From Polyangiales bacterium (GTDB lineage: Bacteria > Myxococcota_A > Polyangia > Polyangiales > Ga0077539), in assembly GCA_044229975.1 (NCBI GenBank), contig JBGARZ010000009.1, positions 1-64,000 of the forward strand: a stretch of 64,000 bases of DNA. The letters are read 5' to 3'. The notes under the pieces were generated by a model, which was not told where the DNA came from, did not search any database, and was given only the letters and a program-made list of their open reading frames with translations. Numbering within the stretch: position 1 is the stretch's first letter; every line of letters starts with the position of its first letter. The translations under genes were made by a program, and so were the position numbers. This document shows, piece by piece, positions 1-40,966 of this stretch.

Positions 1-61
1 TGCCCTTCAAGGCGGCGGCCGTCTCCTTCAACACCTTCGTCACGTTGGTCGCGAGTTGCAT
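1..61 (-). mobile_element. Possible 5' end of an ISAzo13-family transposase, running off the window edge
   Basis: ATG at 61 reads MQLATNVTKVLKETAAALKG, resembling my recollection of ISAzo13 transposase N-termini (MELT..LK..L.ETA..LKG). Only 20 codons are visible. Confidence 0.35.
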
Positions 62-208
62 GCCCGACTGCCTGGGAGCTCTGGCGAGCGCTGGACACCC
101 TACGCCCGTTCAGCCCGAGCACTTTGCTGCGGCGCCCTTAGGTGAACGTCGAGCTACGATCTTGCTGATCATTGGTGCCCGTGTTGGATACGTGACCGTA
201 CAGACTAA

Positions 209-844
209 CTAGGAACGTGCTGGGTGTCCTGCCATGCCCGGACGGGGCGCCGCGGTTGACGTAGCTGGGCATACTCGGCCCTTGATATTGCTCGAACTCG
301 AACTCGAACAGCGGCGTCTCACGACGGAACACTCTTGAGAGAGCAGTTCCGAAGCGAAACGGAATGAATCACAGAAGTTCAACGCAGACAAACAATGGGA
401 ACGATTGAAGGGCAGCCCGCTATCTACGCTGACAGCCCGCACGCAAGCCATGCGGTGCCCTGCGTCGCACGCCCGCTCATACATCTCTGCGGCGACTCTA
501 AGGGATCCTGCCCTTCGAAAGGCCGATCCCGCCAAAAAGCACCCGAAACCTATGTGACCAGAACCACTCAAACAGCTCCAGCGCAGCGCAGGAAGCCTCG
601 CCCCCCATCCCATCACCATGCAGGCAAGCAGCAACATGACACCCGCAGGCCCACTGCGCCACGTCGCGAACGCGAGCCATGCTCCCCCGGCCAACAGAAC
701 GAGAACAAGAAAAAATACGACCCCAGACCAATACCGTTCATAGTACAACCCAGTCGCTAATCCCGACATGGAGGCCATGACGCCCGAGGCCAATCCCGCC
801 AACCGCTTCTTCAATTTTTCATCCCACACTTCAGTCACGTCCAT
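209..844 (-). CDS. Putative Rhs immunity protein (membrane protein with a Sel1-like repeat)
   Basis: ATG 8 nt after the Rhs stop; lower GC like the toxin tip; about 3 hydrophobic segments; Sel1-like AAEMYERACDAGHRMAC. Confidence 0.55.
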   Translation of the reverse strand: MDVTEVWDEKLKKRLAGLASGVMASMSGLATGLYYERYWSGVVFFLVLVLLAGGAWLAFATWRSGPAGVMLLLACMVMGWGARLPALRWSCLSGSGHIGFGCFLAGSAFRRAGSLRVAAEMYERACDAGHRMACVRAVSVDSGLPFNRSHCLSALNFCDSFRFASELLSQECSVVRRRCSSSSSSNIKGRVCPATSTAAPRPGMAGHPARS

Positions 845-852
845 CGACCCAC

Positions 853-3800
853 TCAATACCGCGGATGGGACATGCCCCCGAATCTCGTCCGACCCCGGCA
901 CCCGTCAATCAATCCGCGCATTGCCCAGCGCTGTGCATCAGTCGAGTATTCAGAGGCTCGATTTCCAACATTTGAGTCTGACGGAACGCCCACAAGTTCC
1001 TTCAACATATAGTACGCCCTCTGGTTATGCAGAGACCCAAAGCAACCCGCCGGGCCTCTTGAGATCCCTGAGACATAATTCTGCAGATAGTGATCTATAT
1101 TTACCAACGAAGGTCGATTCGCGATCGCCATTGCACTGTCTCGCCTGACTTCGACAACATTTTCGAAAGCCTCGTAGAAGCTACCGTTCGCTCCATCAAG
1201 CGCGTCTTGCAATGCGGCAATCGTCTGCTGTTGGGTGGCACTTGGCCCAACACTTCTTTCCCACGCTGTCTCTTGCTGCACATTCGCTTGGTGTGCGTAG
1301 TAGAGACCGACACCGAAGCCTACCACAAAGGCGATCGGTACCCATGCGACCTCGCCAGTGGGATCGATGTAGTTGACCGGATCGCCCGCCACATACGCAT
1401 ACAGATTCCGCCCATCCACGGCATCCCGCTCCCCGGCCGGATCCCTCGTGAGCCACTGCCGCAGCCGCGGCGAGTACACCCGGGCCGGCGCGAACACCAA
1501 CCCCGTCGGCCGATGCACCACATGTCCAGTGAACCCCATGTGCGTGTCGTACACCCCGAGCCCGCTGCCCGCCGCCGCCACGGTCTGCTCTCCCCACACC
1601 CCATAGCGGTATGTCCGCACCCGATCGCCGTCGAGCGTCAGCCCCATCACACTGCCGCGCACATCGCGTATCACCGCGAGGTGCTCGCCCCCCTGGTCGA
1701 TCCCATCCACGCGGTAGATCCGCTCGATGGGCGTCTCCCCCGACTCCTCGATGCGCTCGCTCCGCAGCGTCCAACCACGCCACCGCAGCTTCACCGTCTG
1801 CGCGCCCTCCACCATCGACGTGAGCCGCCCGGTCGCGTCGTACACGAAGGTCCAGCTCGCGCTGTCCGACACCCGCGTCACGCCCGTCAGCCGATCGCGC
1901 ACGTCCCAAGCATAGGTGTACTCCCCATCCCCCGTCACGCGACCGCGCGCGTCGTGCGTCAGCGTGTGCGTTGGTGAGGCGCTCGGTCCCATCGCCCGCG
2001 TCAGCAGCCGGTCGCTCACCGAGAACGTCCTGCCCTCGATGACGTTCCAGCCCCAGCTCCCGCCGCCCCAGTCCTGATAGCGGTCGATGAGCGTCGTGTT
2101 GCCCCACGCGTCGTAGTAGCTCCAGTTGCCGCTCTCCTGCACATACGTCCCCGCGATGTTGTTGACGTACTCCGAGTGGAACGACACCCGCCGTGCGCTG
2201 TTGTAATAGGTGTACCGCCAGAGCACGTCGTCCCGCTCCGAGTTCACCCGTCCGTCTGCCGTGAACTCCAGCTCCGTCAGGCCCTGCCGCTGGTTCGTCG
2301 TCGCGTTGAGCGTCCGCGCTCGCCACATCCGCAGGTCGTCCGAGGTCGACTGATAGAGGAAGTCTTGCACGCAGTTGGTGCGTGGCAGCGCCGCGAGCGA
2401 CGGGCGACGGGTCGTCACCCCCGAGCCGAAGGTGTAGCTGAGCACCGTCGTCGGGGGCGAGGTCGCGTTGTTGACGAGGCCCGTCAGCCGGTCCGCCGAG
2501 TCGTACTGGTAGGTCAGCGTCTCCCCGTCGTGTGTCACCGACGCGGCCCGACCTCGCACGTCGTGGGTGAACGACGCCGTGTCGGAGTCCGTCAGCGTCA
2601 TCCCGCTATAGGTATCCTCCACCACCCCGACGACCCGGTCGGCGTTGGGCAACGTCGTCGTCGGCATCGTCATTGCCACCACCGTCGCCGCTCCGTAGGT
2701 CAACGCGCGCTCGACCGAGACGCCGCCGTGGAGCGTCGTGGACTCCGTCAGCCGATCCCGCAGCACGTCATAGGTGAGGTCGTCCCGATCGGTGCACATG
2801 CTGTCGCGGCAGACACGCTTCGTGCGCCCCACCTCGTCGTACTCGAAGGTCGTCACCGCCGCGTCCGGCGCCGTCACCGTCGTGAGCTCGCCCGCGTTGT
2901 TGTACGCGTATGCGGTGTCCTCCGAGACGCCACCCGCCGTGCGACGCAGGCGCGTCGGCCGCGTGGAGTAGCTGGTGCTCAACGGGAAGCTCCACTGCGT
3001 CGTCGGCACCGCGCTCCCGCCGGAAACACGGAGCAGTTCGAGCCGGTGAAACCACCCGCTCTCCGCGACGTCGTAGCGGTAGCGCGTCGGGTCGGAGCCG
3101 CCGCTCGTCGTGCTGTACCGCAGTCGGTGCAGCGCGTCGTACGAGCGCACCATCGCGTTGCCGTCCACTCCCGTGACGCTCGTCGCCTCCAGTGCCTGGA
3201 AGGGGTCGCCGTGGGTGTCGAGCGCGAGCGCGCCGTTCTCGTCCCGGTAGCGGTAGTCGTAGGTCACCGTGCGGCTGCCCGGCGCCGTGATGGTGAGCAC
3301 GCGGTCGAGGTCGTCGTAGGTGAAGCTCCGGGTGATGCCCTCGATGCTCGTCACCGTCGCGGGCAGTCCCCGCGTGTTGTAGGTCGTCGACGACGTGCCC
3401 GCGGGGCTGGCCACGCTGGTCAACCGATGGCTCGTGCCGTCGTAGGTGTTGACGACCGTCGAGGAGTCCGGGCGGGTGACGGTCGTGAGCTGGTGGTTCG
3501 TGTTGTACGCGAGCGTCGTGAGCTGGTTGGTGCCGTCGCGCATGGTCACCGGGAGATGCGGATGCGCCGGGTCGTAGGTGAGATCGGCGATGAGCTCTTC
3601 GGTGCTTGAGCCGACGTCGCGCGTCACCCGCGTGAGGTCGCCTTCCGTGTTGTACGAGTAGACGATCCTCTGTCCCTCGTCGTCCGTCGAGGAGGTCATC
3701 CGCCCGTCGGCGTTGTAGGTGAAATAGGTGCTTCGATCCTGCGCGTCCCACGTCGAGCCGGACGGGTTCACCTGGCGAAACAGCCCGGTCACCAGAGCGC

Positions 3801-30458: not shown

Positions 30459-30695
30459 GTGAGCCGGAGTTCGCGTAAGCCCCATTGAATCGAAGTGCAG
30501 TCGCTCACTCCGGGCTATTTCAGGTGGTCACCTCGCGGCGCGAGGTTGCAGTGACTCTCGGCTGGCCATGACCGGATCGATGGCTGCTCATGGGAGCTAG
30601 CGATGCAACCTCGCGCCGCGAGGTGACCACCTGAAATAGCCCGGAGTGAGCGACTGCACTTCGATTCAATCGGGCTTACGCGAACTCCGGCTCAC
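30459..30695. repeat. 92-bp near-perfect inverted repeat with a 53-nt spacer (MITE/REPIN-like)
   Basis: 30459-30550 matches the reverse complement of 30604-30695 with one mismatch; each arm contains an internal palindrome ACCTCGCG-N-CGCGAGGT. Confidence 0.93.
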
Positions 30696-33073
30696 CGCGA
30701 CGCGCAGAACCCCAGCTCCGTCCCCTCGCCCGCCATCAGCGTGCGGTTCCACATCGCGCCGCGGAACACCACGTCCCCGGTGTCGCCCATGCGCTCGCTG
30801 TTCCAGTTGTTGTTGATGCGCCCCGCGACCCGGTGGACCACCGTCCACGTCACCGCCGCGCCCGTGTTGTTCATGATCTGCACGCGCTCGCAGAAGCCCG
30901 TCTCCCACGTCGAGTCGCGCACCGTCGTCGTCGCCACGCCCGGCGTCGTCACCGCCCCACCACCCGCGTCCACCGTCACCACGACATCCACCGCACCCGC
31001 GTCCGTCGCGCCCGCATCGGCGCTCGCGTCCGCCACCACCCCGCCGTCGGTCACCACCGGCGTCCCGTCGCCCGCGCGCTCGGTGAAGTGCGGCGACTGC
31101 GTGAGCGCCACGATCAAGCCCTCGATGGAGAGGTCCGCCGTGCGGAAGCGCTGCTGAACCTCCGTCAGCGCGCACGCCGTCTGCTCGCCCGTCGCCGACA
31201 GCGCGTACGCGTAGCGGAAGAGCTGCCGGGCAAAACAATCGTGCACCTCCGGGCTCGCCGCGAGGCGCTCGATCATCGCCTGCGTGTCGGTCGTCGCTCC
31301 GTCGCTGCTCGCGCTGCCCACGACTTCGCCGCGCGCGTCGATGGCGGCGCCGTTCTCCGTCGTGCGGAAGCGCCCCACCCCGTCAAAGAACTCGAACCCG
31401 AACCCGATCGGGTCCATCAGCCGGTGGCACGACACGCAGGGCTCGTTGCTCGCGTGCATCGCGTACTGCTCCCGCAGCGAGCGCCGCGGGTCGGGCGTCG
31501 GTGGCTGCGCGTTGATGCCCGGCGGCGGCGGCGGCAGCGTCTGGCAGAGCAGGCGCTCGCGCACCAGTCGACCGCGGTGCACCGGCGACGACGAGTTGGG
31601 TCGCGCGTGCGTCGCCATCACCGCGCCCAGCGTGAGCACCCCGCGGCGCTGCGCCTCCACCGTCGATGCGCGCCGATAGCCCTGCGCGTCGGCCGCTCCG
31701 TCGGGGCTCAAGCCGTAGAAGCCCGCCAGCGTCGGGTCGACGAAGGTCGCCGCCGTCGTGAACAGGTCGGGCAGCCGTGCCCCCGCCCGCAGCAGCGTCG
31801 CGTCGACGTAACGATCGAACTCCCCCGCCATCGACGCCCTCACCGCGGGCGTAAACGCCGTGAAGGTCGTCGCGTCCTTCGGAACCGTCGCCAACCGATC
31901 GACGTCCAACCACTGGCGCACGAAGCGCCGCAGTGACTCACGCGCGCCCGGCGTCGTGAGCAGCCGCCGGACCTGCGCTTCGATGACGGCGGGCGTGGTG
32001 AGCGTCCCGGCGCGCGCGGCGGCGAAGAGCTCGGTGTCGGGCATGGTTCCGGTGAGCAGGTACGACAGCTCCGAGGCGACCTCCCACGCGGTCAGTCGGT
32101 ATGCCCCACCCGCGCTCACGCCAAGCTCGGCGCGGTAGAGGAAGTGGGGCGATTGCAGCATCGCGGACACCACGGCCTCGGCGCCTTCGTTGAAGCCTTC
32201 GCCCGTCGCGATGGTGGTGAAGAGCCCGAGGTACCGCGTCACCTCATCGCTCGTCAGCGGGCGACGGAAGGCCCGCTCGCCGAAGCCCTCCACCATGCGC
32301 CGCGCGCACGCCGCGTCGGTCGGTGACGTCGGCGTACACGGTGAGATGCGCGAGATGTCGCGGGTGGCCTCCGTCGCGATGGCCTCGCCTGCGACACGGA
32401 GCTGCTCGGCCAGCAGCGGCGACACCACGAGCGAAGCGGCGTCGTTGTCGAAGCCGTCGACCACCGGGTCGGCGACGAAGCTCGCGCCGTGGTGCGCGTC
32501 GACGCCGGTGAGGTCGCGCACCGTGCGGTCGTACTCGGTGGGCGTGAGGCGACGCAGCACGCGCGGGCCGGGCGTGACGGTGGTGCAGGCGGCGGGGGAG
32601 GTTCCGCCGTCGCCTGTCGTGGGGTCGTCGCAGGCGGCGGTGGAAACGCGGGCGACGAAGCGTGAGAGCGCGGCGTAGTCGGTGCTGCCGGGAGGCGTGA
32701 TGGTTCCGCCGGTGTGGCCCATGGGGTGGAGACCGGCGGGGCGCAGGAGCAGCAGCGGCGTGTCGGCGAGGCGTGCGGTGGCGACGGCGCGAGCGGCCCG
32801 GAAGTTGTGATCGAGCCAGTCGGGTTGCCCCTCGGCGCGCAGCACGAGGCGGGTCGCGCGCGCAGGCCCGGCGGCGTTGTGGCAGCCGACGCAGCGCAGG
32901 CTCATCAGCGGCGACCACAGCTCGCGGCGAAACGACTGGAGGTCAGCGTCGCAGACGGGGTCGTTGGAGGCGCCGTCGGGGAGCGTCGCGAGCGGAGCCG
33001 CGTCACCGCCCGCGGCGGGGTCGCTGGAGCAGCCGAGAGCGAGCAGCGCGGCGAGGGCCAGGAGGCGGGTCAC
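30692..33073 (-). CDS. DUF1587/1595/1592/1588/1585 lipoprotein with CxxCH motifs and C-terminal CBM2-like domain
   Basis: GTG overlaps the upstream TGA; lipobox ALGC; CVGCH; LRRLTPTEY; RAFRRPL; LQSPHFLYR; SSPVHRG; CVSCHRLMDPIGFGFE; tail STWETGFC..NNWNS..WN..GFC. Confidence 0.9.
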   Translation of the reverse strand: MTRLLALAALLALGCSSDPAAGGDAAPLATLPDGASNDPVCDADLQSFRRELWSPLMSLRCVGCHNAAGPARATRLVLRAEGQPDWLDHNFRAARAVATARLADTPLLLLRPAGLHPMGHTGGTITPPGSTDYAALSRFVARVSTAACDDPTTGDGGTSPAACTTVTPGPRVLRRLTPTEYDRTVRDLTGVDAHHGASFVADPVVDGFDNDAASLVVSPLLAEQLRVAGEAIATEATRDISRISPCTPTSPTDAACARRMVEGFGERAFRRPLTSDEVTRYLGLFTTIATGEGFNEGAEAVVSAMLQSPHFLYRAELGVSAGGAYRLTAWEVASELSYLLTGTMPDTELFAAARAGTLTTPAVIEAQVRRLLTTPGARESLRRFVRQWLDVDRLATVPKDATTFTAFTPAVRASMAGEFDRYVDATLLRAGARLPDLFTTAATFVDPTLAGFYGLSPDGAADAQGYRRASTVEAQRRGVLTLGAVMATHARPNSSSPVHRGRLVRERLLCQTLPPPPPGINAQPPTPDPRRSLREQYAMHASNEPCVSCHRLMDPIGFGFEFFDGVGRFRTTENGAAIDARGEVVGSASSDGATTDTQAMIERLAASPEVHDCFARQLFRYAYALSATGEQTACALTEVQQRFRTADLSIEGLIVALTQSPHFTERAGDGTPVVTDGGVVADASADAGATDAGAVDVVVTVDAGGGAVTTPGVATTTVRDSTWETGFCERVQIMNNTGAAVTWTVVHRVAGRINNNWNSERMGDTGDVVFRGAMWNRTLMAGEGTELGFCASR

Positions 33074-34371
33074 GAGAGCAGCCCCGGCAGCGGACCGGCG
33101 CCGCGCGACGGGTCGCCGAAGGTCGGGTTGTCCATGCCCATCGCGTGGCAGAGCGACACCAGCAGCCGTTGATGAGGCACGTGCGAGAGCTGGAGGTAGC
33201 GATCGGTGACCAGGCGCCCGCCCGCTCCACCCGCGAGCACGAAGGGGACGGAGAAGCAGTCGTGCAGGCGGCTGTCGCCCATCTCCTTGGCCCACACCAC
33301 GAGCGAGTGATCGAGCATGGAGCCGCTGCCGCCCGGCTCGGGGAGCTCGGCCATCTGCGCCACCAGCCACGCGAACTGCTCGGCGAACCACCGCTCGGCC
33401 TGGACGAACTGCGCCACGCCCGACGCGTTGCCGTCGCCCATGTGCGAGAGCGCGTGGTGCCCCTCACCCAGCCCCAGCCAGGTGAAGACGTGCGGCGCCA
33501 CGGTGTGCGCCCATTGGATGGACGCCACCTTCGTCGCCCCGCATGACAGCGCCGCGAGCAGGAGCTGCATCTGCGATCGACCGACGGGCGGAAGGTTGTC
33601 GTTGGCGCGGTGGTCGAGCTCGGTGATGACGGGCGGCGCGCAGGTGGCCGACGGCGCGGACGGTCCTGCGAGGGAGACCTCGACGCGGCGGAGCGATTCG
33701 AGGTGGGCGTCGAGCTTGCGGCGTTCGTCGGCGCCGACGCGGGACTGGAGGTCGCGGAGGTCACCGCGCACGAGGTCGAGAACGCTCTGCCGTCGCGAGC
33801 GCATCGCGTCGACCATGCCGGGCACCGGAGCCATCGAGGCGAAGAGTCGGCGGTAGACGCTCGCGGGCTCGTCGTCGGGCGGAACGAAGCTGCCCGGCCC
33901 CGAGTACGACATGCGCGTCTGGGTGTTGCCGCCCCACGCGCTCGTCTGGACGCCGAGTTCGAGGGAGGAGAGGCGGGAGGAGGTTCCTACGGCGCGGGCG
34001 ATGTACTGGTCGACGGAGAGGCCCGCGGAGGGGGACGACGCGTCGCCGCTGCCGGTGAGCATTGCGGCCATGCCGCCCTCGTGGTTGCTGGCGCCGACGA
34101 AGTCGATGCCGTCGAGCACCACGAGGTGCCGCTTCACCGCCGCGAGCGGCTCCATGATGGAGCCCGCGGGGAACGACCACGTCGACCCGGAGGTGGTCGG
34201 GCGCCAGTGGCGGTGGATGGTTCCGTTGGGGGAGAAGAAGAGGACGAGGCGGCGGGCGCCCATCGCGGAGCCGGCGTGCGATGCGCGGCGGAAGGGCGCG
34301 AGGAAGGGCGCCGCGACGGCCGCGAGGGCGGCTCCGTACACGAAGGTTCGACGGCCGATGCGGGTCTCCAT
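33070..34371 (-). CDS. DUF1552 (HXXSHH-family) protein with Tat-like signal
   Basis: RRTF twin-arginine; FFSPNG; SSLELGV; RRQSVLD; HHALSH; usual partner of DUF1592 proteins. Confidence 0.9.
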   Translation of the reverse strand: METRIGRRTFVYGAALAAVAAPFLAPFRRASHAGSAMGARRLVLFFSPNGTIHRHWRPTTSGSTWSFPAGSIMEPLAAVKRHLVVLDGIDFVGASNHEGGMAAMLTGSGDASSPSAGLSVDQYIARAVGTSSRLSSLELGVQTSAWGGNTQTRMSYSGPGSFVPPDDEPASVYRRLFASMAPVPGMVDAMRSRRQSVLDLVRGDLRDLQSRVGADERRKLDAHLESLRRVEVSLAGPSAPSATCAPPVITELDHRANDNLPPVGRSQMQLLLAALSCGATKVASIQWAHTVAPHVFTWLGLGEGHHALSHMGDGNASGVAQFVQAERWFAEQFAWLVAQMAELPEPGGSGSMLDHSLVVWAKEMGDSRLHDCFSVPFVLAGGAGGRLVTDRYLQLSHVPHQRLLVSLCHAMGMDNPTFGDPSRGAGPLPGLLS

Positions 34372-34481
34372 GCAAGGCCACCATACACGCGAGCGGCGGC
34401 GGTCGGCATGACGACGCTCTCCGACGATGGCCCGACGCGCCCTTGACGAGACGACGTCGACGGAGATCCGATCGGCCCACG

Positions 34482-34754
34482 ATGAGTGACCCGCTGTGCC
34501 CCTGTCCCAACTGCTATCGCCACGTGCGCACCAGCAGCACGTCCTGTCCGTTCTGCGGCGATGCACGGCGCGTCGACGGCGTCGCGTGGGGGCGCGTCGG
34601 CACCGGGGTGATCCTCGCGGTGGCCGCGAGCGCGGCGCTGCACGCCTGCTACGGCGCGCCGGCACCGTGCCCGATCGATCAGTGCGACTACGACCGCGAC
34701 GCGCAGACGGACAGTGGCGCCGACGCGTCGACCGACGTGGCCGGCGATCGCTGA
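34482..34754 (+). CDS. Small Cys-rich protein (CPxCxRH...CPFC, hydrophobic segment, CYGAP), 90 aa
   Basis: MSDPLCPCPNCYRHVRTSSTSCPFCG...LHACYGAPAPC; GC-rich third codon positions; fills the intergenic gap. Confidence 0.7.
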   Translation: MSDPLCPCPNCYRHVRTSSTSCPFCGDARRVDGVAWGRVGTGVILAVAASAALHACYGAPAPCPIDQCDYDRDAQTDSGADASTDVAGDR

Positions 34755-34843
34755 CAGGCCCCGGGGGTCCCGCCACGGGTCGATCACGATTCGGCCGGAC
34801 GTTTGGAGCGGACCCTGGCGCCGTGTCTTGCGTCCCCGCGCCC

Positions 34844-36019
34844 CTATCGCCCGCTCCCCTCGCACCGCGTAACTGGCGGAACGAACACCGTCATCACCTC
34901 GCCACACCGGCACGGCAGGTACACGCTCCCCACGAAGGCGCGCATGTTGCGCTGCGATTCCATCTCTTCGCCGCGCCCCTGCTTCACCAGCAGCGTGCGC
35001 TTGCGAAACGTCACCGCGAGCCCGTCGCTCTCGTGCCTCCCGCCAATGGCTGCGTCGTCAAACGCGCCCAGCAGCGTGAACATCCCCTCCTCGCGCAGCT
35101 TCCTCCGCGTCGGCGAGCGAAAGCCCTTCGACACCTGCAACACCGGGTCGAGCTGCGGCATGTCCCCGTGGCTCGGCAGCGTCTTCACCACGCGCAGCGA
35201 CTCGTCGCCGTAGTAGTGGATGCCCGGCCGCCCATACAGCCGGAAGAAGTACGGGACATCCCCGCGCGCCATCTGCTCGCTCTCCCCATCGAGCAACGGC
35301 GGCCACGGCGGAACCGACCGCGCCCGCACATAGTCCCCCGTCCCGCGAAGACACACCCGGATGGGCGTCTCGCGCAGCCCGGGCAGCGCCGCAAACACCC
35401 CCGCGATCGTCTCCGCGTGTCGATCGAGAATCGCGAGCGTCGCGAGGTACGCCGCCGCCATCGCGACGAGGTCTCCGCCATCGACAGGCTTCCCCAGGTA
35501 CGGCAGCACCCGACGAACACCCGCCGCGTGTCGGCACACCTCCGCGTACTCGGGGTCGGCGTCGGGCAGCAGCTTGGTCTCCGTCGGCATCGACAGGTCG
35601 GCCAGGATCATCTCGACATCGAGCGGCGTGAACACCACGCGCCCATCGCTCGCGAGACCGAGCACGAGGTTTTCCCAGTGCAGATCGGAGACGCCGAGCC
35701 AGCTCCAGAGCGCCACGGCACGACCGGTGATCTGCGCGAGCGCGCGTCGGTCATCGCCGCGGGTCATGGGCAACGGCGCGAGCGTCACGCTCTCCACTTC
35801 GCCCTCGTCGCGCGACTCCGGGTGGCGAAACTCCAGCGATGGCAGGAAGCCGAAGACGCCCGGGGCGATACCGTCGAGGCATCGCCGCAGCGGGCTGTCG
35901 GCGGAGAGCACCAGCCACTCCCAGAAGACGCTGCGCGGCTTGGCGATGCGCCCGTCGCGACGAGACACCCGTCGGCCGAAGTTGTGGGAGTCGCCGAGGT
36001 CGGTGCGCTCGTGGGTCAT
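34844..36019 (-). CDS. Stand-alone LanM-type dehydratase/kinase domain protein (DUF4135-like)
   Basis: GDSHNFGR, KPRS, DLHWEN, LDVE, RVCLRGTGDY and EQMARGDVPYF in the order found in LanM N-terminal domains; no LanC cyclase. Confidence 0.8.
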   Translation of the reverse strand: MTHERTDLGDSHNFGRRVSRRDGRIAKPRSVFWEWLVLSADSPLRRCLDGIAPGVFGFLPSLEFRHPESRDEGEVESVTLAPLPMTRGDDRRALAQITGRAVALWSWLGVSDLHWENLVLGLASDGRVVFTPLDVEMILADLSMPTETKLLPDADPEYAEVCRHAAGVRRVLPYLGKPVDGGDLVAMAAAYLATLAILDRHAETIAGVFAALPGLRETPIRVCLRGTGDYVRARSVPPWPPLLDGESEQMARGDVPYFFRLYGRPGIHYYGDESLRVVKTLPSHGDMPQLDPVLQVSKGFRSPTRRKLREEGMFTLLGAFDDAAIGGRHESDGLAVTFRKRTLLVKQGRGEEMESQRNMRAFVGSVYLPCRCGEVMTVFVPPVTRCEGSGR

Positions 36020-36087
36020 TGGGCGGCGCGACCTTACCGCGAGGCCGCGCGCGTGCGCCCGCTCCGTCGATGTGATGCACTCGGTCG

Positions 36088-37008
36088 ATGTCCGACGGCG
36101 TCACCCTCGATCAGCTCCGCACCCTGCGCGCCGTCGCCGAGGAGGGCAGCTTCTCCGCCGCGGCCCGCAAGCTCGGACGCGTTCAGGCAGCCGTCAGCCA
36201 GTCCATCGACCGCCTCGAAGCCCAGCTCGGATTGCGCCTCTTCGATCGCACCTCGCGCACCCCGACGCTCACCCGCCACGGCGAGGCCCTCGTCGCCATG
36301 GCCACCAGGGTGCACGACGAGGTGGAGGGCTTCGACGCACTCGTCGCAACCCTCAAGGGCGGCGCCGAGACGAAGCTCTCGATCGTGGTCGACGTGATGT
36401 TTCCGATGGAGGCGCTGGTCGGCTTCGCGCGCGAGTTCGCCGACGCGCACCCGGCCGTCGAGCTCACGCTGCACACCGAGACCCTCTCCGCCGTCACCGC
36501 GCTCGTGCGTGATCGCCGCGCTGCCCTTGGCGTCGCCAGCATCGACACCGACGTCGCCGACCTCGACCAGCGCCACGTCACGGACATCCGCCTCGTCCCC
36601 GTCGCGTCGCCCGCTCACCCGCTCGCCGCCATCGACGGTGCCGTCGCCAAGGCAGACCTCGCGCGCACCATGCAGATCGTCCTCAGCGAGCGCCTCTCCG
36701 GCGGGCGCCGCGGCGCTGATGACCGGGGCGTTCTGTCGGACCGCACCTGGCGCGTCGATGACCTCGCGACCAAGCACGCCCTCATCGCCGCGGGGCTCGG
36801 GTGGGGACACCTGCCGGAGCACGTCGTTCGCGCTGACCTGAAGTCTGGTCGCCTCGTCGCGCTGCGGCTCGACGCGTGGGGCCCCGAAGCACCGCTACGA
36901 TCGCTGTTCCTGGTGCGGCGTCAGGGCGGAGTGCTCGGGCCGGTGGCGCAGTGGTCGGCCGCACGCCTCGTCGACCTCTGCCGCGGAGCCGTCGATCACG
37001 TCACGTGA
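36088..37008 (+). CDS. LysR family transcriptional regulator
   Basis: LDQLRTL..EEGSFSAAARKL..QAAVSQSIDRLEAQLGLRLFDR; AGLGWGHLP. Confidence 0.95.
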   Translation: MSDGVTLDQLRTLRAVAEEGSFSAAARKLGRVQAAVSQSIDRLEAQLGLRLFDRTSRTPTLTRHGEALVAMATRVHDEVEGFDALVATLKGGAETKLSIVVDVMFPMEALVGFAREFADAHPAVELTLHTETLSAVTALVRDRRAALGVASIDTDVADLDQRHVTDIRLVPVASPAHPLAAIDGAVAKADLARTMQIVLSERLSGGRRGADDRGVLSDRTWRVDDLATKHALIAAGLGWGHLPEHVVRADLKSGRLVALRLDAWGPEAPLRSLFLVRRQGGVLGPVAQWSAARLVDLCRGAVDHVT

Positions 37009-37068
37009 TGGTGGGCATCACCCGGTCGCGCGTTTCGCTCCATCGTCCAGCGACCGACCATCACTGGC

Positions 37069-37989
37069 ATGAACACCTCAACCGAGACCCTTCGTTCGAC
37101 CGAGACCCGTCCTTCCACCAACGGGGTTCGCTCCGTCGAGGCCATCCACCGCGGTAGCCCCTTTCACTGGGTGGGCGACGGGTTTCGCGTCTCCAGCTTC
37201 TTCCCGACGCGCGCGCTCCCGGCCGAGCGGGTGAGCCCGTTTCTGCTGATGGACTACCACCCCGCGCACGAGTACCCCGCGCTCGCGCAGGGTCAGCGCG
37301 GCGTCGGTTGGCACCCCCACCGCGGCTTCGAGACGGTCACCCTCGCGTGGCAGGGATCGGTCGCCCACCGCGACACCGCCGGTCACGCGGGCGTCATCGG
37401 ACCGGGTGATGTCCAATGGATGACCGCTGCCTCGGGCGTTCTCCACGAGGAGTACCACGAGCGCGATTTCTCTCGGCGCGGCGGGGTGTTTCAGATGATG
37501 CAGCTCTGGGTCAACCTGCCCGCGAAGGACAAGATGACCGCGCCCGACTACCAGGGCATCACCGCGGCCGACATCCCCGTGGTGACGCGCGACGGCGCCT
37601 CGGTGCGGGTCGTCGCGGGCGAGTTCGAAGGGGCGCACGGACCAGCGCGAACCCACAGCCCCGTGACCATGCTCGACGTGCGGATGGAGGCGGGCGCGAC
37701 GCTCTCGTTGCCGCTGCCCGCGGGTCACAACGCGCTGGTGCTGGTCGCAGAAGGCAGCGTCGCGTCGGGCGGTCGGAAGGCCGACGTGCGGGAGCTGATG
37801 CTCTTCGCCAACGACGGCGAGCGCGCGGTGGTGACCGCCGAGAGCGCCGCGCACTTCGTGGTGCTGGCGGGTGAAGCCCTCAACGAACCCGTCGTCGCCT
37901 ACGGACCCTTCGTGATGAACACCGACCGCGAGATCGTGCAGGCGATGCAGGACTTCAACGCCGGGAAGTTCGGCCGCATCCCGGAGTGA
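37069..37989 (+). CDS. Pirin family protein
   Basis: SPFLLMD, HPHRGFETVT, QWMTAASGVLHEE, QLWVNLP, YGPFVMN. Confidence 0.95.
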   Translation: MNTSTETLRSTETRPSTNGVRSVEAIHRGSPFHWVGDGFRVSSFFPTRALPAERVSPFLLMDYHPAHEYPALAQGQRGVGWHPHRGFETVTLAWQGSVAHRDTAGHAGVIGPGDVQWMTAASGVLHEEYHERDFSRRGGVFQMMQLWVNLPAKDKMTAPDYQGITAADIPVVTRDGASVRVVAGEFEGAHGPARTHSPVTMLDVRMEAGATLSLPLPAGHNALVLVAEGSVASGGRKADVRELMLFANDGERAVVTAESAAHFVVLAGEALNEPVVAYGPFVMNTDREIVQAMQDFNAGKFGRIPE

Positions 37990-37997
37990 GCGGCTTC

Positions 37998-38076
37998 AGA
38001 CCCATCCGTCTGAAGGTCATCGCGCCCGGCCCGCCGCGGCTTGAAAACCCACGACGGCCTTCAGGGGGATGGGTCT
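37998..38076. terminator. Imperfect 25-bp inverted repeat between convergent genes (bidirectional terminator or REP)
   Basis: 37998-38022 matches the reverse complement of 38052-38076 at 21/25 positions. Confidence 0.5.
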
Positions 38077-39296
38077 CAGAACCCCACCCGACGCACCAGC
38101 CCGCCCACCTCTCCGCCCGGAAACCCCGTCGACGCCGCGCTCACGTGCACGGCGTTTTCAGGCAGACGCGGCAGCAGTCGCGAGCCCTGCTCCAGCATCG
38201 ACAATCCGTTGAAGGCGCGGTCGCTCGTGCGGAGCTGCAACAGCACCTCGCCGTCGCTGTCGCGCAGCGTGACCGCCGTGGGGCGCACGTCCGTCACGAG
38301 CCCGTCGTAGCGCACGCGGTCGCGGTCGACGCCCACGATGATGCTCAAGCTCCCGTAGCCCGTGCTGTTCACCGGCGGAACTGCCTCGTCGCCGCTCATC
38401 CGCGCCACGTACAGCTCCTCGCCAGGACGCAGGATCTGTCCCCGCATCTCCCCCGTCGGGAAGCGCGCGCTGCCGACGTGGATGTACCAACGACCGGCGT
38501 CGAGGTCCTGCGTCGAGGTGATGGTGCGCGCGCCCGCGAGCAGCGGCGCCGGCGGCGTCTTCGGGTCGGTCAGGTCGACCGCCACCGGACCATCGGCGCC
38601 GGCCGGAGCGACGCGGATGTCCACCGCGATCGGCGACACCGTCATGCCGCGGGTGAACATGTTGAAACGCACGCGGTTGGTCGTCCCGTCGACGAGGAGC
38701 TGCCCGAGGCCCGAGCTCGTCACGGAGGTCGGCGGGTTGACCTGATCGCCCGAGAGGCGCGCCACATAGACCAGCTCGCCCGGCCGAACCACCTGCGCGC
38801 GTACCTCCCCGTTGGGGTGCGCCTCGCTGTGGATATCGATGTACGCGGTTCCGTCTTCGAGGGCGCGAGCCTGCGCGCGGGTGACCTCGACGGTGCCCGT
38901 GAGCACGCCCGGCGTCAGCGGCAGCGTGAGCATCTCCTCGCCTGAATCACCTGCGAGGCCGAGGTGCAGGTGCGCCGCGGTCGGTGACTCGACGGTGTGC
39001 TCCAGGGTGTAGCTGAGCTGCGTGCGCTCGCCGTCGAGCGTGAAGGTCGCGGCCCCGGTGGCGCGGGTGTCGTAGACGGCCGGGACGACCTCGCGGCCCG
39101 TGAGCACGGCGTTGAGCGCCACGGCGGGCAAGACCTCGGGCGCCTCCGGGGGCGTTCCGACGGGCGGGTTGGTGACGACCGGGTCAGCGGGTGTGTCAGT
39201 GAACGTGTCGACCGACGTGACACCGGGCTCGGTGCCACACGCGGCGAGCAGCGAAAACACCGGAAGAACAAGGGCGAAACCGCGGAGGGAGGTCAT
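38076..39296 (-). CDS. CHRD-domain lipoprotein (three CHRD repeats)
   Basis: Lipobox LAAC; LTGREVVP..AAHLH..YIDIHSEAHPNGEVRAQ, then YIHVGSARFPTGEMRGQ and FPGGEVGG. Confidence 0.88.
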   Translation of the reverse strand: MTSLRGFALVLPVFSLLAACGTEPGVTSVDTFTDTPADPVVTNPPVGTPPEAPEVLPAVALNAVLTGREVVPAVYDTRATGAATFTLDGERTQLSYTLEHTVESPTAAHLHLGLAGDSGEEMLTLPLTPGVLTGTVEVTRAQARALEDGTAYIDIHSEAHPNGEVRAQVVRPGELVYVARLSGDQVNPPTSVTSSGLGQLLVDGTTNRVRFNMFTRGMTVSPIAVDIRVAPAGADGPVAVDLTDPKTPPAPLLAGARTITSTQDLDAGRWYIHVGSARFPTGEMRGQILRPGEELYVARMSGDEAVPPVNSTGYGSLSIIVGVDRDRVRYDGLVTDVRPTAVTLRDSDGEVLLQLRTSDRAFNGLSMLEQGSRLLPRLPENAVHVSAASTGFPGGEVGGLVRRVGF

Positions 39297-39365
39297 GGCG
39301 AAGGCTCGCTTTCATCGCGGTCCGACGGGCGGCTGGTGAGCCCGATGGCGCGGCGTGACCTGCTG

Positions 39366-39382
39366 TTGCAGAGGGCGTTCCA
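39366..39382 (-). promoter_or_regulatory. Candidate sigma54 promoter for the CHRD gene
   Basis: TGGAACGCCCTCTGCAA versus consensus TGGCACG-N4-TTGCW, correct GG-N10-GC spacing, about 70 nt upstream of the ATG. Confidence 0.55.
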
Positions 39383-39538
39383 GCGCGGGAGCTGCGGGCG
39401 TGGTGCGGTGTTGCTCGCGCGGCGCGCTGGTGAACCCGGCCACACCTGCGGCGGTCGGGAGCGGTGCCCGATTGTCCCATTCGTGCACTGTCGCGCTCCA
39501 GCTTGACACCCCCGAGGCGGTGCTCTCCCATGCGCGGC

Positions 39539-40966
39539 ATGGAGACCTCCGTGCAGCCCGCAGCCCCGCACAACCCGTACCTCGAAGGGCCCTTCAAACC
39601 CATCGAGCGCGAGCTCACCGCGACCGACCTCCCGGTCATCGGCCAGCTCCCGACCGACCTCGCGGGGATGTACGTCCGCAACGGGAGCAACCCCAAGCAC
39701 GCGCCCAAAGGGCGCTACCACTGGTTCGACGGCGACGGGATGGTGCACGGCCTCCACTTCGAGGGCGGCCGCGCGACCTACCGCAACCGCTACGTCCAGA
39801 CGGCTGGCCTGCGCGAAGAGACCGCCGCGGGTCACGCCCTCTGGACCGGCATCATGGAGGCGCCCGACTTCCGCCGCAGCGGCGGTCCCTTCAAGGACAC
39901 CGCCAACACCGACCTCGTCTTCCACGCGGGCAAGCTGATGGCCCTTTGGTGGCTCGGCGGCGCCTGCCATCACCTCTCGCTCCCGGCGCTGGAAACCCTC
40001 GGCGTGGTGGACTTCGGCAAGTCACTCCACAAGGGACTCTCGGCGCACCCGAAGGTCGATCCCGTCACCGGGGAGATGATGTTCTTTGACTATCAGCTCA
40101 CGCCCCCATTCCTCACCTACGGGGTGATCTCGGCGAACGGGGAGCTGGTGCACCAGGTTCCGATCAACCTGCCGGGCGCGCGCTTGCAGCACGACATCGC
40201 CATCACGGCGAAGCACACCATCCTCATGGACCTCCCGCTGATGTGGGACCCGGCGCTGCTCGCGCGCGGCAAGACCCGCGTTCGCTTCTATCCCGACAAG
40301 CCCGCCCGCTTCGGCATCATTCCCCGCCACGGCGGGACGAGCGAAGTGCGGTGGTTCGAGGCCGCGGCTTGTTACATGTATCACACCATCAACGCCTGGG
40401 AGGAGGGCGACGAGGTCGTGATGCTCGGCTGCCGCATCGAGAACCCGCTGCCCGAAGCGGTCGACCCGTCGCGCCCGATTCCGCGCCTCGACGCGCTCGC
40501 GCTGGAGCCGTACTTCCACGAGTGGCGCTTCAACCTCGTCACGGGCGCCGTGCGCGAGCGCAAGCTCGACGACGTGATGACGGAGTTCCCCCGAATGAAC
40601 AACGAGTTCCTGGGGAGGCCGTCGCGGTATAGCTACAACCCGCGCATCGCCCCGGCGACCACGCTGCTCTACGACGGCGTCATCAAGTACGACTCCGTGG
40701 CCAACACCTCCGTCGCTCACGGTTATGGCAAGGGGCGCTACGGCGGAGAGGTGGTCTTCGCGCCGCGGGTCGGGGCGACCGAAGAGGACGACGGATACCT
40801 CGTGACCTTCGTGCATGACGTGACCACCGACCGCGGCGAAGTGGTGGTGCTCGACGCGCGCGACGTCGGCGGAGAGCCCGTGGCGAGGGTGATGCTGCCG
40901 CAGCAGGTGCCCATCGGGTACCACTCGTGGTGGGTTCCGGCCGCGCAGATGGCGGTCTCGCGATGA
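39539..40966 (+). CDS. Carotenoid/lignostilbene cleavage oxygenase (RPE65 family)
   Basis: NPYLEGPFKP, HWFDGDGMVH; four Fe-binding His in SAHPK, QHD, YHTINAW and GYHS; EFPR; EDDGY. Confidence 0.95.
   Translation: METSVQPAAPHNPYLEGPFKPIERELTATDLPVIGQLPTDLAGMYVRNGSNPKHAPKGRYHWFDGDGMVHGLHFEGGRATYRNRYVQTAGLREETAAGHALWTGIMEAPDFRRSGGPFKDTANTDLVFHAGKLMALWWLGGACHHLSLPALETLGVVDFGKSLHKGLSAHPKVDPVTGEMMFFDYQLTPPFLTYGVISANGELVHQVPINLPGARLQHDIAITAKHTILMDLPLMWDPALLARGKTRVRFYPDKPARFGIIPRHGGTSEVRWFEAAACYMYHTINAWEEGDEVVMLGCRIENPLPEAVDPSRPIPRLDALALEPYFHEWRFNLVTGAVRERKLDDVMTEFPRMNNEFLGRPSRYSYNPRIAPATTLLYDGVIKYDSVANTSVAHGYGKGRYGGEVVFAPRVGATEEDDGYLVTFVHDVTTDRGEVVVLDARDVGGEPVARVMLPQQVPIGYHSWWVPAAQMAVSR

Follow-up and report, generated by a model that had tools for sequence, protein, structure and literature searches.

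The closest described counterparts of the enzyme reported here are the class II lanthipeptide synthetases (LanM) of the CylM type. In the account given in PMC4550811, phosphorylation by CylM depends on residues K274, D347, H349, N352 and D364 and phosphate elimination on D252, H254, R506 and T512; the β element I666–L690 is a proposed leader-binding element, and capping helices hold the activation subdomain in place. LanM-type enzymes with a dehydratase domain and no cyclase are already known, each described together with a precursor: PoyF (polytheonamide), HomMD/LanMD (hominicin) and EmbM (phospeptin) (PMC9505594, PMC12749797, PMC9259500). We have analysed positions 1 to 64,000 of contig JBGARZ010000009.1 (assembly GCA_044229975.1) of a Polyangiales bacterium, this whole stretch being called the window, which encodes a 391 amino acid minimal LanM-type enzyme (P0001) with the corresponding catalytic residues (Table 1).

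P0001 resembles CylM in its PI3K-like fold (Z=14.0 and 12.0) and in the five phosphorylation and four elimination positions, and would by analogy work like the dehydration domain of LanM while not being a LanM. Unlike CylM, with which it shares 13–15% identity, it has no capping helices (CylM 5–131), little of the N-lobe (135–241) and no cyclase toroid, adds a tail with three Cys residues, and has no precursor, LanT or protease nearby. PoyF, HomMD and EmbM are set apart by their descriptions, which place them in clusters for peptides that are ribosomally synthesized and then modified post-translationally (RiPPs) with a leader-bearing precursor and tailoring genes; the clade of P0001 has neither and pairs with a gene of the DTW aminocarboxypropyl transferase family. 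The CA_C0082-type LanM-like proteins beside agr operons share the lack of other lanthipeptide machinery, but are described as having no conserved catalytic residues (PMC10301443). A search of the literature for the minimal family or for a LanM–DTW pair, which covered main texts and few subscription journals, gave no description of either.

The minimal LanM-type enzyme

A preliminary description, made from the letters alone, had listed a series of LanM motifs, and all of them occur in the same order in the translated protein: GDSH (residues 9–12), KP (27–28), DLHWEN (112–117), DVE (134–136), RVCLRGT (221–227), GDVPYF (253–258), YLPCRC (367–372) and C386. The AlphaFold2 model, built on a 138-row alignment, has a predicted local distance difference test (pLDDT) score of 91.4. 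Foldseek placed CylM first (E-value=2.3e-5) and LicM2 second, followed by PI3K-family kinases. The superposition on the CylM dehydratase that the preliminary description had proposed was run with this model and matched the LanM fold; with VIA, residues 1–361 aligned to CylM 242–688 (Z=14.0, root-mean-square deviation 3.5, 285 residues aligned). The same description had seen a dehydratase domain only. Its statement that a cyclase is missing stands, but P0001 is more than the dehydratase domain alone: its alignment reaches CylM 688 and thereby takes in the three-strand element at the start of the cyclase. The kinase core and C-lobe, the elimination subdomain and the three-strand sheet are kept and the protein starts at the P-loop, whereas by the model alignment and the domain boundaries given in PMC4550811 the capping helices, most of the N-lobe and the toroid are gone. 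The sheet, modelled at residues 327–356, is a putative leader-binding element.

Residue equivalences to CylM were set by motif order and spacing, and conservation was counted in 44 diverse relatives (alignment A3) and in 138 sequences (A2). Eight of the nine CylM catalytic positions are invariant among the 44 diverse relatives and the ninth is Thr or Ser. Profile searches matched weakly, with both of the expected hidden Markov models below their cut-offs: DUF4135 (PF13575) gave 22.6 bits against 29 (E-value=7e-5) and TIGR03897 gave 10.6 bits against 304 (E-value=0.081). For most close homologs a PF13575 assignment had been precomputed, and two distant members score 39.5 and 47.4 bits. Sequence searches of the PDB with P0001 or the A2 profile returned no LanM at E≤10. 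Enzymes of this type tend to escape routine mining, since they score under the Pfam cut-off and since the DUF4135 network of PMC10676384, as described there, left out sequences shorter than 500 amino acids. If active, this core of about 390 residues, which keeps every catalytic residue, would show the minimum needed for LanM dehydration and offer a compact installer of dehydroamino acids.

The short N-terminus is genuine: relatives likewise begin at GDxHNF, and a –10-like box lies close to the ATG. Such a box stands upstream of the enzyme in 33 of 105 upstream regions of the clade, compared with a mean of 1.8 and a maximum of 6 in shuffled sequence. The predicted near-leaderless promoter leaves no room for an upstream precursor ORF (open reading frame).

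Conservation and distribution

Among 7999 scored candidate proteins of 215–685 amino acids, 859 match P0001 at E≤0.001; the best 120 of these are 386–459 residues long, share 63–90% identity with it and, where named, come from Polyangiaceae. With a profile as query, 521 cluster representatives matched at E≤0.001; many have 340–390 residues and the same starting motif, and one cluster member is named Bdellovibrionales. The possibility that the close homologs are all full-length LanM proteins is not borne out, as the relatives share the short boundaries of P0001; none was found among proteins of 805–2295 residues, which is weak evidence, the search in long proteins having been confined to that range. 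Two members of the family appear to be split in two, through a frameshift or sequencing error (G085 C22:87294–88480 and L182:1586–2454).

The gene is evidently whole and under selection. Compared with a 90%-identical contig, 33 of 40 differences fall at third positions and, of 39 altered codons, 31 keep their amino acid (40 of the 51 differences being listed). In a quick tree the terminal branch of P0001 is short (0.048), and the protein is nested among Polyangium and Minicystis sequences linked to DTW. The enzyme was found in 30 of 151 Polyangiaceae genomes and in none of 30 genomes of the host's own family, for which reason the gene probably reached the host by transfer. Mean column identity is 54–64% in the clade of the window enzyme (the window clade) and 29–34% in the precursor-bearing members described below; the higher conservation is what a fixed substrate would predict. 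Plasmids, phages and viral contigs gave no match. A search of sequencing runs for the enzyme gene listed no RNA run, and 17 DNA runs with small shares.

The DTW partner

The analysis of gene neighbourhoods covered 119 loci, 39 from species genomes and 80 from metagenomes. The window clade accounts for 108 of them, and the 99 with at least 250 nt of downstream sequence could be evaluated; loci were not dereplicated. In 88 of these 99 a DTW gene lies directly downstream of the enzyme on the same strand. It matches PF03942 (E-value about 1e-39) with the zinc-finger Cys residues, DGTW and STLE intact. These features are shared with the TapT/DTWD2 transferases, which form 3-(3-amino-3-carboxypropyl)uridine (acp3U) (PMC12630136, PMC6895100). 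Unlike TapT/DTWD2, the partner is a second, accessory paralog, a paralog of 35–42% identity being also present. Among 111 flanking proteins no LanC, LanT-type or recurring export or receptor gene was seen, and the other flanks vary.

In the 151 Polyangiaceae genomes all 24 DTW copies of the cassette type (69–81% identity) are beside an enzyme gene, 23 of them adjacent and one at 2.1 kb. This grouping was made by likeness to one cassette copy, compared by hand, and an identity gap separates the groups; three genomes have a DTW of 50–52% identity and no enzyme. At the window site the DTW gene is missing. The host genome has a DTW of the same type on C11 (about 50% identity) and a more distant one on C38. 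The three most basal members of the clade carry the DTW gene, members without it are scattered over the quick tree, and three Acidobacteriota carry the pair, a pattern that points to repeated loss of DTW within the clade. Enzyme and DTW distances are correlated (Mantel r=0.66, 77 pairs), which, as related sequences are not independent, attests to no more than co-inheritance. Complex prediction with the pair of locus L035 (66-row alignments) scored 0.01 against a mark of 0.32 and speaks neither for nor against an interaction. The cultured strain Minicystis rosea DSM 24000 (L003) carries the enzyme–DTW pair, so that direct testing is possible.

Some further observations concern these genes. In L004, L023, L116, L125 and others, the enzyme gene's final Cys codon and its stop codon are overlapped by the promoter-like boxes of DTW. 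Stand-alone DTW genes of the same type adjoin a gene for an HflX-like GTPase (G000 C11:133688–134386; L186, L189, L195), and the G000 stand-alone copy and several others have no N-terminal zinc-finger Cys residues. Several insertion sites of the unit touch translation-related genes, namely those for an RsmE-type methyltransferase (L012, L015, L022), a 50S-binding GTPase (L018) and an HflX-like protein (L039), as well as rplB and rpsS (L006) and the methionyl-tRNA synthetase gene (L009); the independent sites are few.

Relatives with precursors

At six distinct distant loci (30–39% identity) an ORF of 22–31 amino acids with a ribosome-binding site lies directly upstream of the enzyme gene. The peptides have in common an N-terminal part that is acidic and hydrophobic and closes with E-A or similar, and they carry a Thr near the C-terminus. 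When each in turn was left out, four of the six outscored all other of the 4833 short ORFs in the loci. Genes for a solute-binding protein and a sensor-kinase-like protein follow in L109, L171 and L183 (confirmed by Pfam in L109 and L171), L105 has a kinase gene, and a major facilitator superfamily gene lies upstream, clearly in L109 and by a weak call in L171, that of L182 having no Pfam hit. These distant minimal DUF4135 enzymes have the N-terminal boundary and the catalytic residues of P0001; unlike it, they have an upstream precursor and neither the Cys tail nor a DTW partner. Alignment of the window clade with the precursor-bearing clade (hhalign probability 100, E-value=5.7e-77, 357 columns) indicates that they are one family. 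The context of the distant clade rests on eight distinct loci, and the precursor loci are candidate peptide-signal cassettes.

In a seventh locus, L175, a LanC-like gene end (1–384; PF05147, E-value=6.4e-7) takes the upstream place of a precursor and shares its last letters with the beginning of the minimal dehydratase gene (381–1496), possibly a split LanM. L183 and L184 are on one contig, which carries the precorsor–enzyme–receptor block in two copies inverted to each other; this may be an artefact of assembly.

The window clade gave no counterpart to these peptides. Among 1355 short ORFs near the 108 clade loci none is conserved, those shared being pieces of neighbouring genes, and among the 53122 short ORFs of the host genome none is precursor-like (best E-value 0.79). 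Scanning the nine proteins encoded between 29.4 and 41.0 kb of the window gave no match to LanC, ABC transporter or leader peptidase families, in agreement with the preliminary description. No LanC-like gene (PF05147) was found in the host genome (93% complete); the same search in five other enzyme-carrying genomes found one in three and none in two.

Proposed function

We propose, at an even chance, that what was once a peptide dehydratase now acts on a conserved cellular protein, as part of a process in which DTW of the same type also takes part. The CylM-like chemistry taken by itself, phosphorylation followed by phosphate elimination, is by analogy quite probable. The enzyme would bind ATP and Mg and phosphorylate Ser or Thr of a conserved cellular protein encoded elsewhere; the phosphate would then be eliminated as by CylM, leaving a dehydro residue on the target protein. 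It would work alongside the DTW aminocarboxypropyl transferase, and in the host genome would rely on the resident C11 DTW. The ancestor would have dehydrated a short exported peptide, and the window clade would have lost precursor, exporter and receptor. The family would thus record a change of role, from cassettes with precursor and sensor to a conserved unit that includes a transferase of tRNA type.

The preliminary description had called the protein a stand-alone, cyclase-less LanM-type enzyme, installing dehydro residues in a non-lanthipeptide RiPP or acting as an effector on proteins. The first part holds: the enzyme is whole, has its catalytic residues intact and, to judge from the tiny precursors of its relatives, descends from peptide modifiers. 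For the second, no precursor was found at the clade loci or in the genome, and no evidence of a secreted effector.

What is computed is the predicted fold, the nine catalytic positions, the family architecture, the DTW adjacency, the lack of a local precursor or cyclase and the mostly synonymous change; from these and the likeness to CylM we infer the chemistry, the zinc role of the tail, the ancestral peptide role, the gene transfer and the reliance on the C11 DTW. The class of substrate and the coupling to DTW are drawn from the lost precursor, the high conservation and the linkage. Least secure is what the substrate is; only the DTW partner hints at a target related to translation.

Several results weigh against the proposal. 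The TM-score of the model to CylM is only 0.49. The held-out precursors of L171 and L182 scored below background and three of the six below the best genome match, so that the search may overlook a precursor that has diverged and is encoded elsewhere. The greater conservation of the window clade may reflect a younger clade. Eleven of the 99 loci have no adjacent DTW (one has it 2.1 kb off, ten have none in the available sequence), and six of the 30 Polyangiaceae carriers, one of them a single-chromosome assembly (G065), have no DTW of the same type; conversely, about 28 of the 30 genomes of the host family have such a DTW (about 50% identity) and none showed the enzyme. The cassette DTW also has its own –10-like box in 55 of 75 cases (shuffled mean 1.4); for 29 of 77 there is a –35/–10-like pair (shuffled mean 0.6), which often falls within the final codons of the enzyme. 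As these boxes often overlap the 3' end of the enzyme gene the linkage may be mechanical, and DTW possibly a passenger; a passenger effect alone leaves unexplained why the rest of the enzyme gene has stayed in place beside all 24 DTW copies.

The findings new here are that the DTW-paired and the precursor-bearing clades are one family, that DTW was lost repeatedly, that DTW has promoter-like signals of its own, and that the convergent 90-residue ORF discussed below is excluded as a partner.

The Cys3-His tail and possible self-modification

A short Cys tail after the domain had been pointed out in the preliminary description. It is present and specific to the window clade, and is the most conserved region of the enzyme, with half of its columns at 95% or more. 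C370, C372, C386 and H164, the last placed after the activation-loop region, are each found in all 138 sequences of A2 and are missing from most distant relatives. Hydroxyl residues occupy positions 365, 377 and 384 in 133, 126 and 138 of the 138 (91–100%). We regard the Cys3-His set as a predicted zinc-stabilised element that would replace the capping helices and hold the activation loop.

The main rival to this zinc-stabilised tail is a fused substrate: S365, S/T377 or T384 would be dehydrated by the very enzyme that carries them, and the three tail Cys residues would add to them, or the tail be released as a peptide. The tail is found in the clade that has no free precursor, three conserved hydroxyls stand there with three invariant Cys, and T384 exchanges with Ser (55 Thr and 10 Ser of 66), all of which would suit a substrate. 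Nevertheless, the model shows a well-ordered tail (pLDDT 93–94 for residues 361–380), the alignments to PI3K-family kinases extend into it (to 375–391), which is the pattern of a structural C-terminal element, and the gain of H164 together with the three Cys is consistent with a metal site. Ser/Thr likewise makes up 90% at five further positions, and the pattern at T384 may stem from the overlapping DTW promoter. We consider self-modification unlikely.

Other readings

A second alternative is that the pair modifies RNA, DTW installing acp3U and the kinase-fold enzyme phosphorylating or altering that nucleoside or a neighbour. The linkage in 88 of 99 loci and the intact zinc-finger Cys, DGTW and STLE of the partner, which PMC12630136 describes as used by TapT, agree with this, and the kinase-fold ArkI phosphorylates tRNA at U47, the site of TapT (PMC9095486). 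On the other hand, the closest folds for P0001 are those of LanM enzymes, with PI3K next (a family not listed, such as the eukaryotic protein kinase-like fold of ArkI, may match as well), the relatives with known context adjoin peptides, losses of DTW recur, and all four elimination residues are kept in the enzyme. The nucleoside acp3U has no β-hydroxy-acyl group to eliminate. An RNA target is accordingly a rather poor prospect.

Alternatively, the enzyme may still be a RiPP dehydratase whose small precursor is encoded elsewhere in the genome, with DTW a mere passenger. The putative leader-binding sheet is kept and the relatives have precursors; moreover, the DTW promoter shares sequence with the 3' end of the enzyme gene, and DTW genes of the same type occur alone. 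This is offset by the lack of a precursor-like ORF in the genome or at the clade loci, of a recurring exporter or receptor among the 111 flanking proteins, and by the retention of the enzyme gene beside all 24 cassette-type DTW copies. We rate a distant precursor as improbable. A more speculative picture, to which we would also give little credence, is that of a peptide-signal dehydratase captured into a two-enzyme unit with DTW, in which a dehydro residue, possibly in the enzyme's own tail, is attacked by the aminocarboxypropyl amine to give a new protein or protein–RNA modification outside RiPP biosynthesis.

The enzyme could stop at the phosphate, as EmbM does, a cyclase-less LanM-like enzyme described as phosphorylating Thr (PMC9505594); however, the catalytic site of EmbM is described as mutated (PMC9259500), whereas D10, H12, R221 and T/S227 are kept in P0001 and its relatives. 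Equally, the patchy and mobile gene might encode a protein-targeting effector or toxin, but an N-terminus that begins at the P-loop leaves no room for a secretion signal, the gene persists with no fixed neighbour, and there was no PADLOC hit. A kinase or effector role is very unlikely. That P0001 is a piece broken from a full-length LanM, or what is left of one in decay, as the DUF4135 score below the cut-off and the missing DTW partner could suggest, is hardly credible in view of hundreds of relatives with the same boundaries (none found, as weak evidence, among the long proteins), the mostly synonymous changes and the short terminal branch.

Neighbouring genes

The arrangement given in the preliminary description, with a 90-residue ORF convergent to the enzyme gene and a divergent LysR gene, is seen in the window. 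The 90-residue protein has a zinc-ribbon-like head, a hydrophobic segment, a lipobox-like Cys before YGAP and a Ser/Thr run between two Cys pairs. Adjacency and this run had made it the suggested substrate, a suggestion to which we now give next to no weight. It belongs to a multicopy family independent of the enzyme, with 14 matches in the host genome and 6–10 per genome in four congeners that showed no enzyme. At 42 other enzyme loci (L001–L039, L041–L043) nothing matched it (best E-value 1.2). The Ser/Thr run is not kept in the paralogs. Two tandem paralogs (C14:174584 and C14:175208) lie between two splicease-like radical S-adenosylmethionine (SAM) enzyme genes (G000 C14:173375–176985; L197, L198), which score 511 and 474 bits with TIGR04103 against a cut-off of 725. 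The window copy, with its YG motif, could be an in-trans substrate of such splicease-like enzymes.

Table 1. Positions of the enzyme gene, its conserved elements and the neighbouring genes in the window, with the precursor-like ORFs of distant loci. Counts refer to A3 (44 sequences) and A2 (138 sequences).
Feature	Position	Strand	Basis or remark
Minimal LanM-type kinase/phosphate-eliminating enzyme (predicted), 391 aa	34844..36019	–	Motifs, relatives, AlphaFold2 model, CylM match
P-loop D10, H12 (= CylM D252, H254; phosphate elimination)	35984..35992	–	44/44 A3, 138/138 A2
K27 (= CylM K274)	35939..35941	–	44/44 A3, 138/138 A2
Catalytic loop D112, H114, N117 and metal-binding D134 (= CylM D347, H349, N352, D364)	35618..35686	–	Each 44/44 A3, 138/138 A2
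R221-x5-T227 (= CylM R506, T512; elimination)	35339..35359	–	R 44/44 A3; T 42 and S 2 of 44 A3; T 137/138 A2
β sheet, residues 327–356, at the place of CylM I666–L690 (putative leader-binding element)	34952..35041	–	DSSP on model; aligned range ends at CylM 688
H164, predicted zinc site with tail Cys	35528–35530	–	Invariant, 138/138 A2
Clade-specific tail 357–386: invariant C370, C372, C386; conserved S365, S/T377, T384	34862..34951	–	A2 counts
–10-like box TAAGGT, 11 nt 5' of enzyme ATG	36031..36036	–	Sequence; predicted near-leaderless promoter
90-aa zinc-ribbon protein gene	34482..34754	+	Convergent to enzyme gene; outside the system
LysR gene (36088–37008), then pirin gene (37069–37989)	36088..37989	+	Pfam scan; flanks vary among loci
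Precursor-like ORFs of distant loci	L105:5915–5986, L106:1262–1336, L109:5835–5930, L171:2701–2778, L182:1513–1581, L183:5876–5956		Upstream of enzyme

The LysR gene stands in tandem with the pirin gene, and both are probably outside the enzyme system; among the loci scanned, LysR adjoins the enzyme unit elsewhere only at L017. On the other side of the enzyme, positions 30692–34392 (minus strand) hold a DUF1552 (HXXSHH) gene and, after it, one with DUF1592/1588/1595/1587/1585 and a CBM_2 domain. Positions 38076–40966 encode a CHRD-repeat protein (minus strand) and an RPE65-family oxygenase (plus strand), only the oxygenase region being well conserved in congeners. The first 3000 nucleotides of the window (1–3000) have a GC content of 0.59–0.67, compared with about 0.72 elsewhere.

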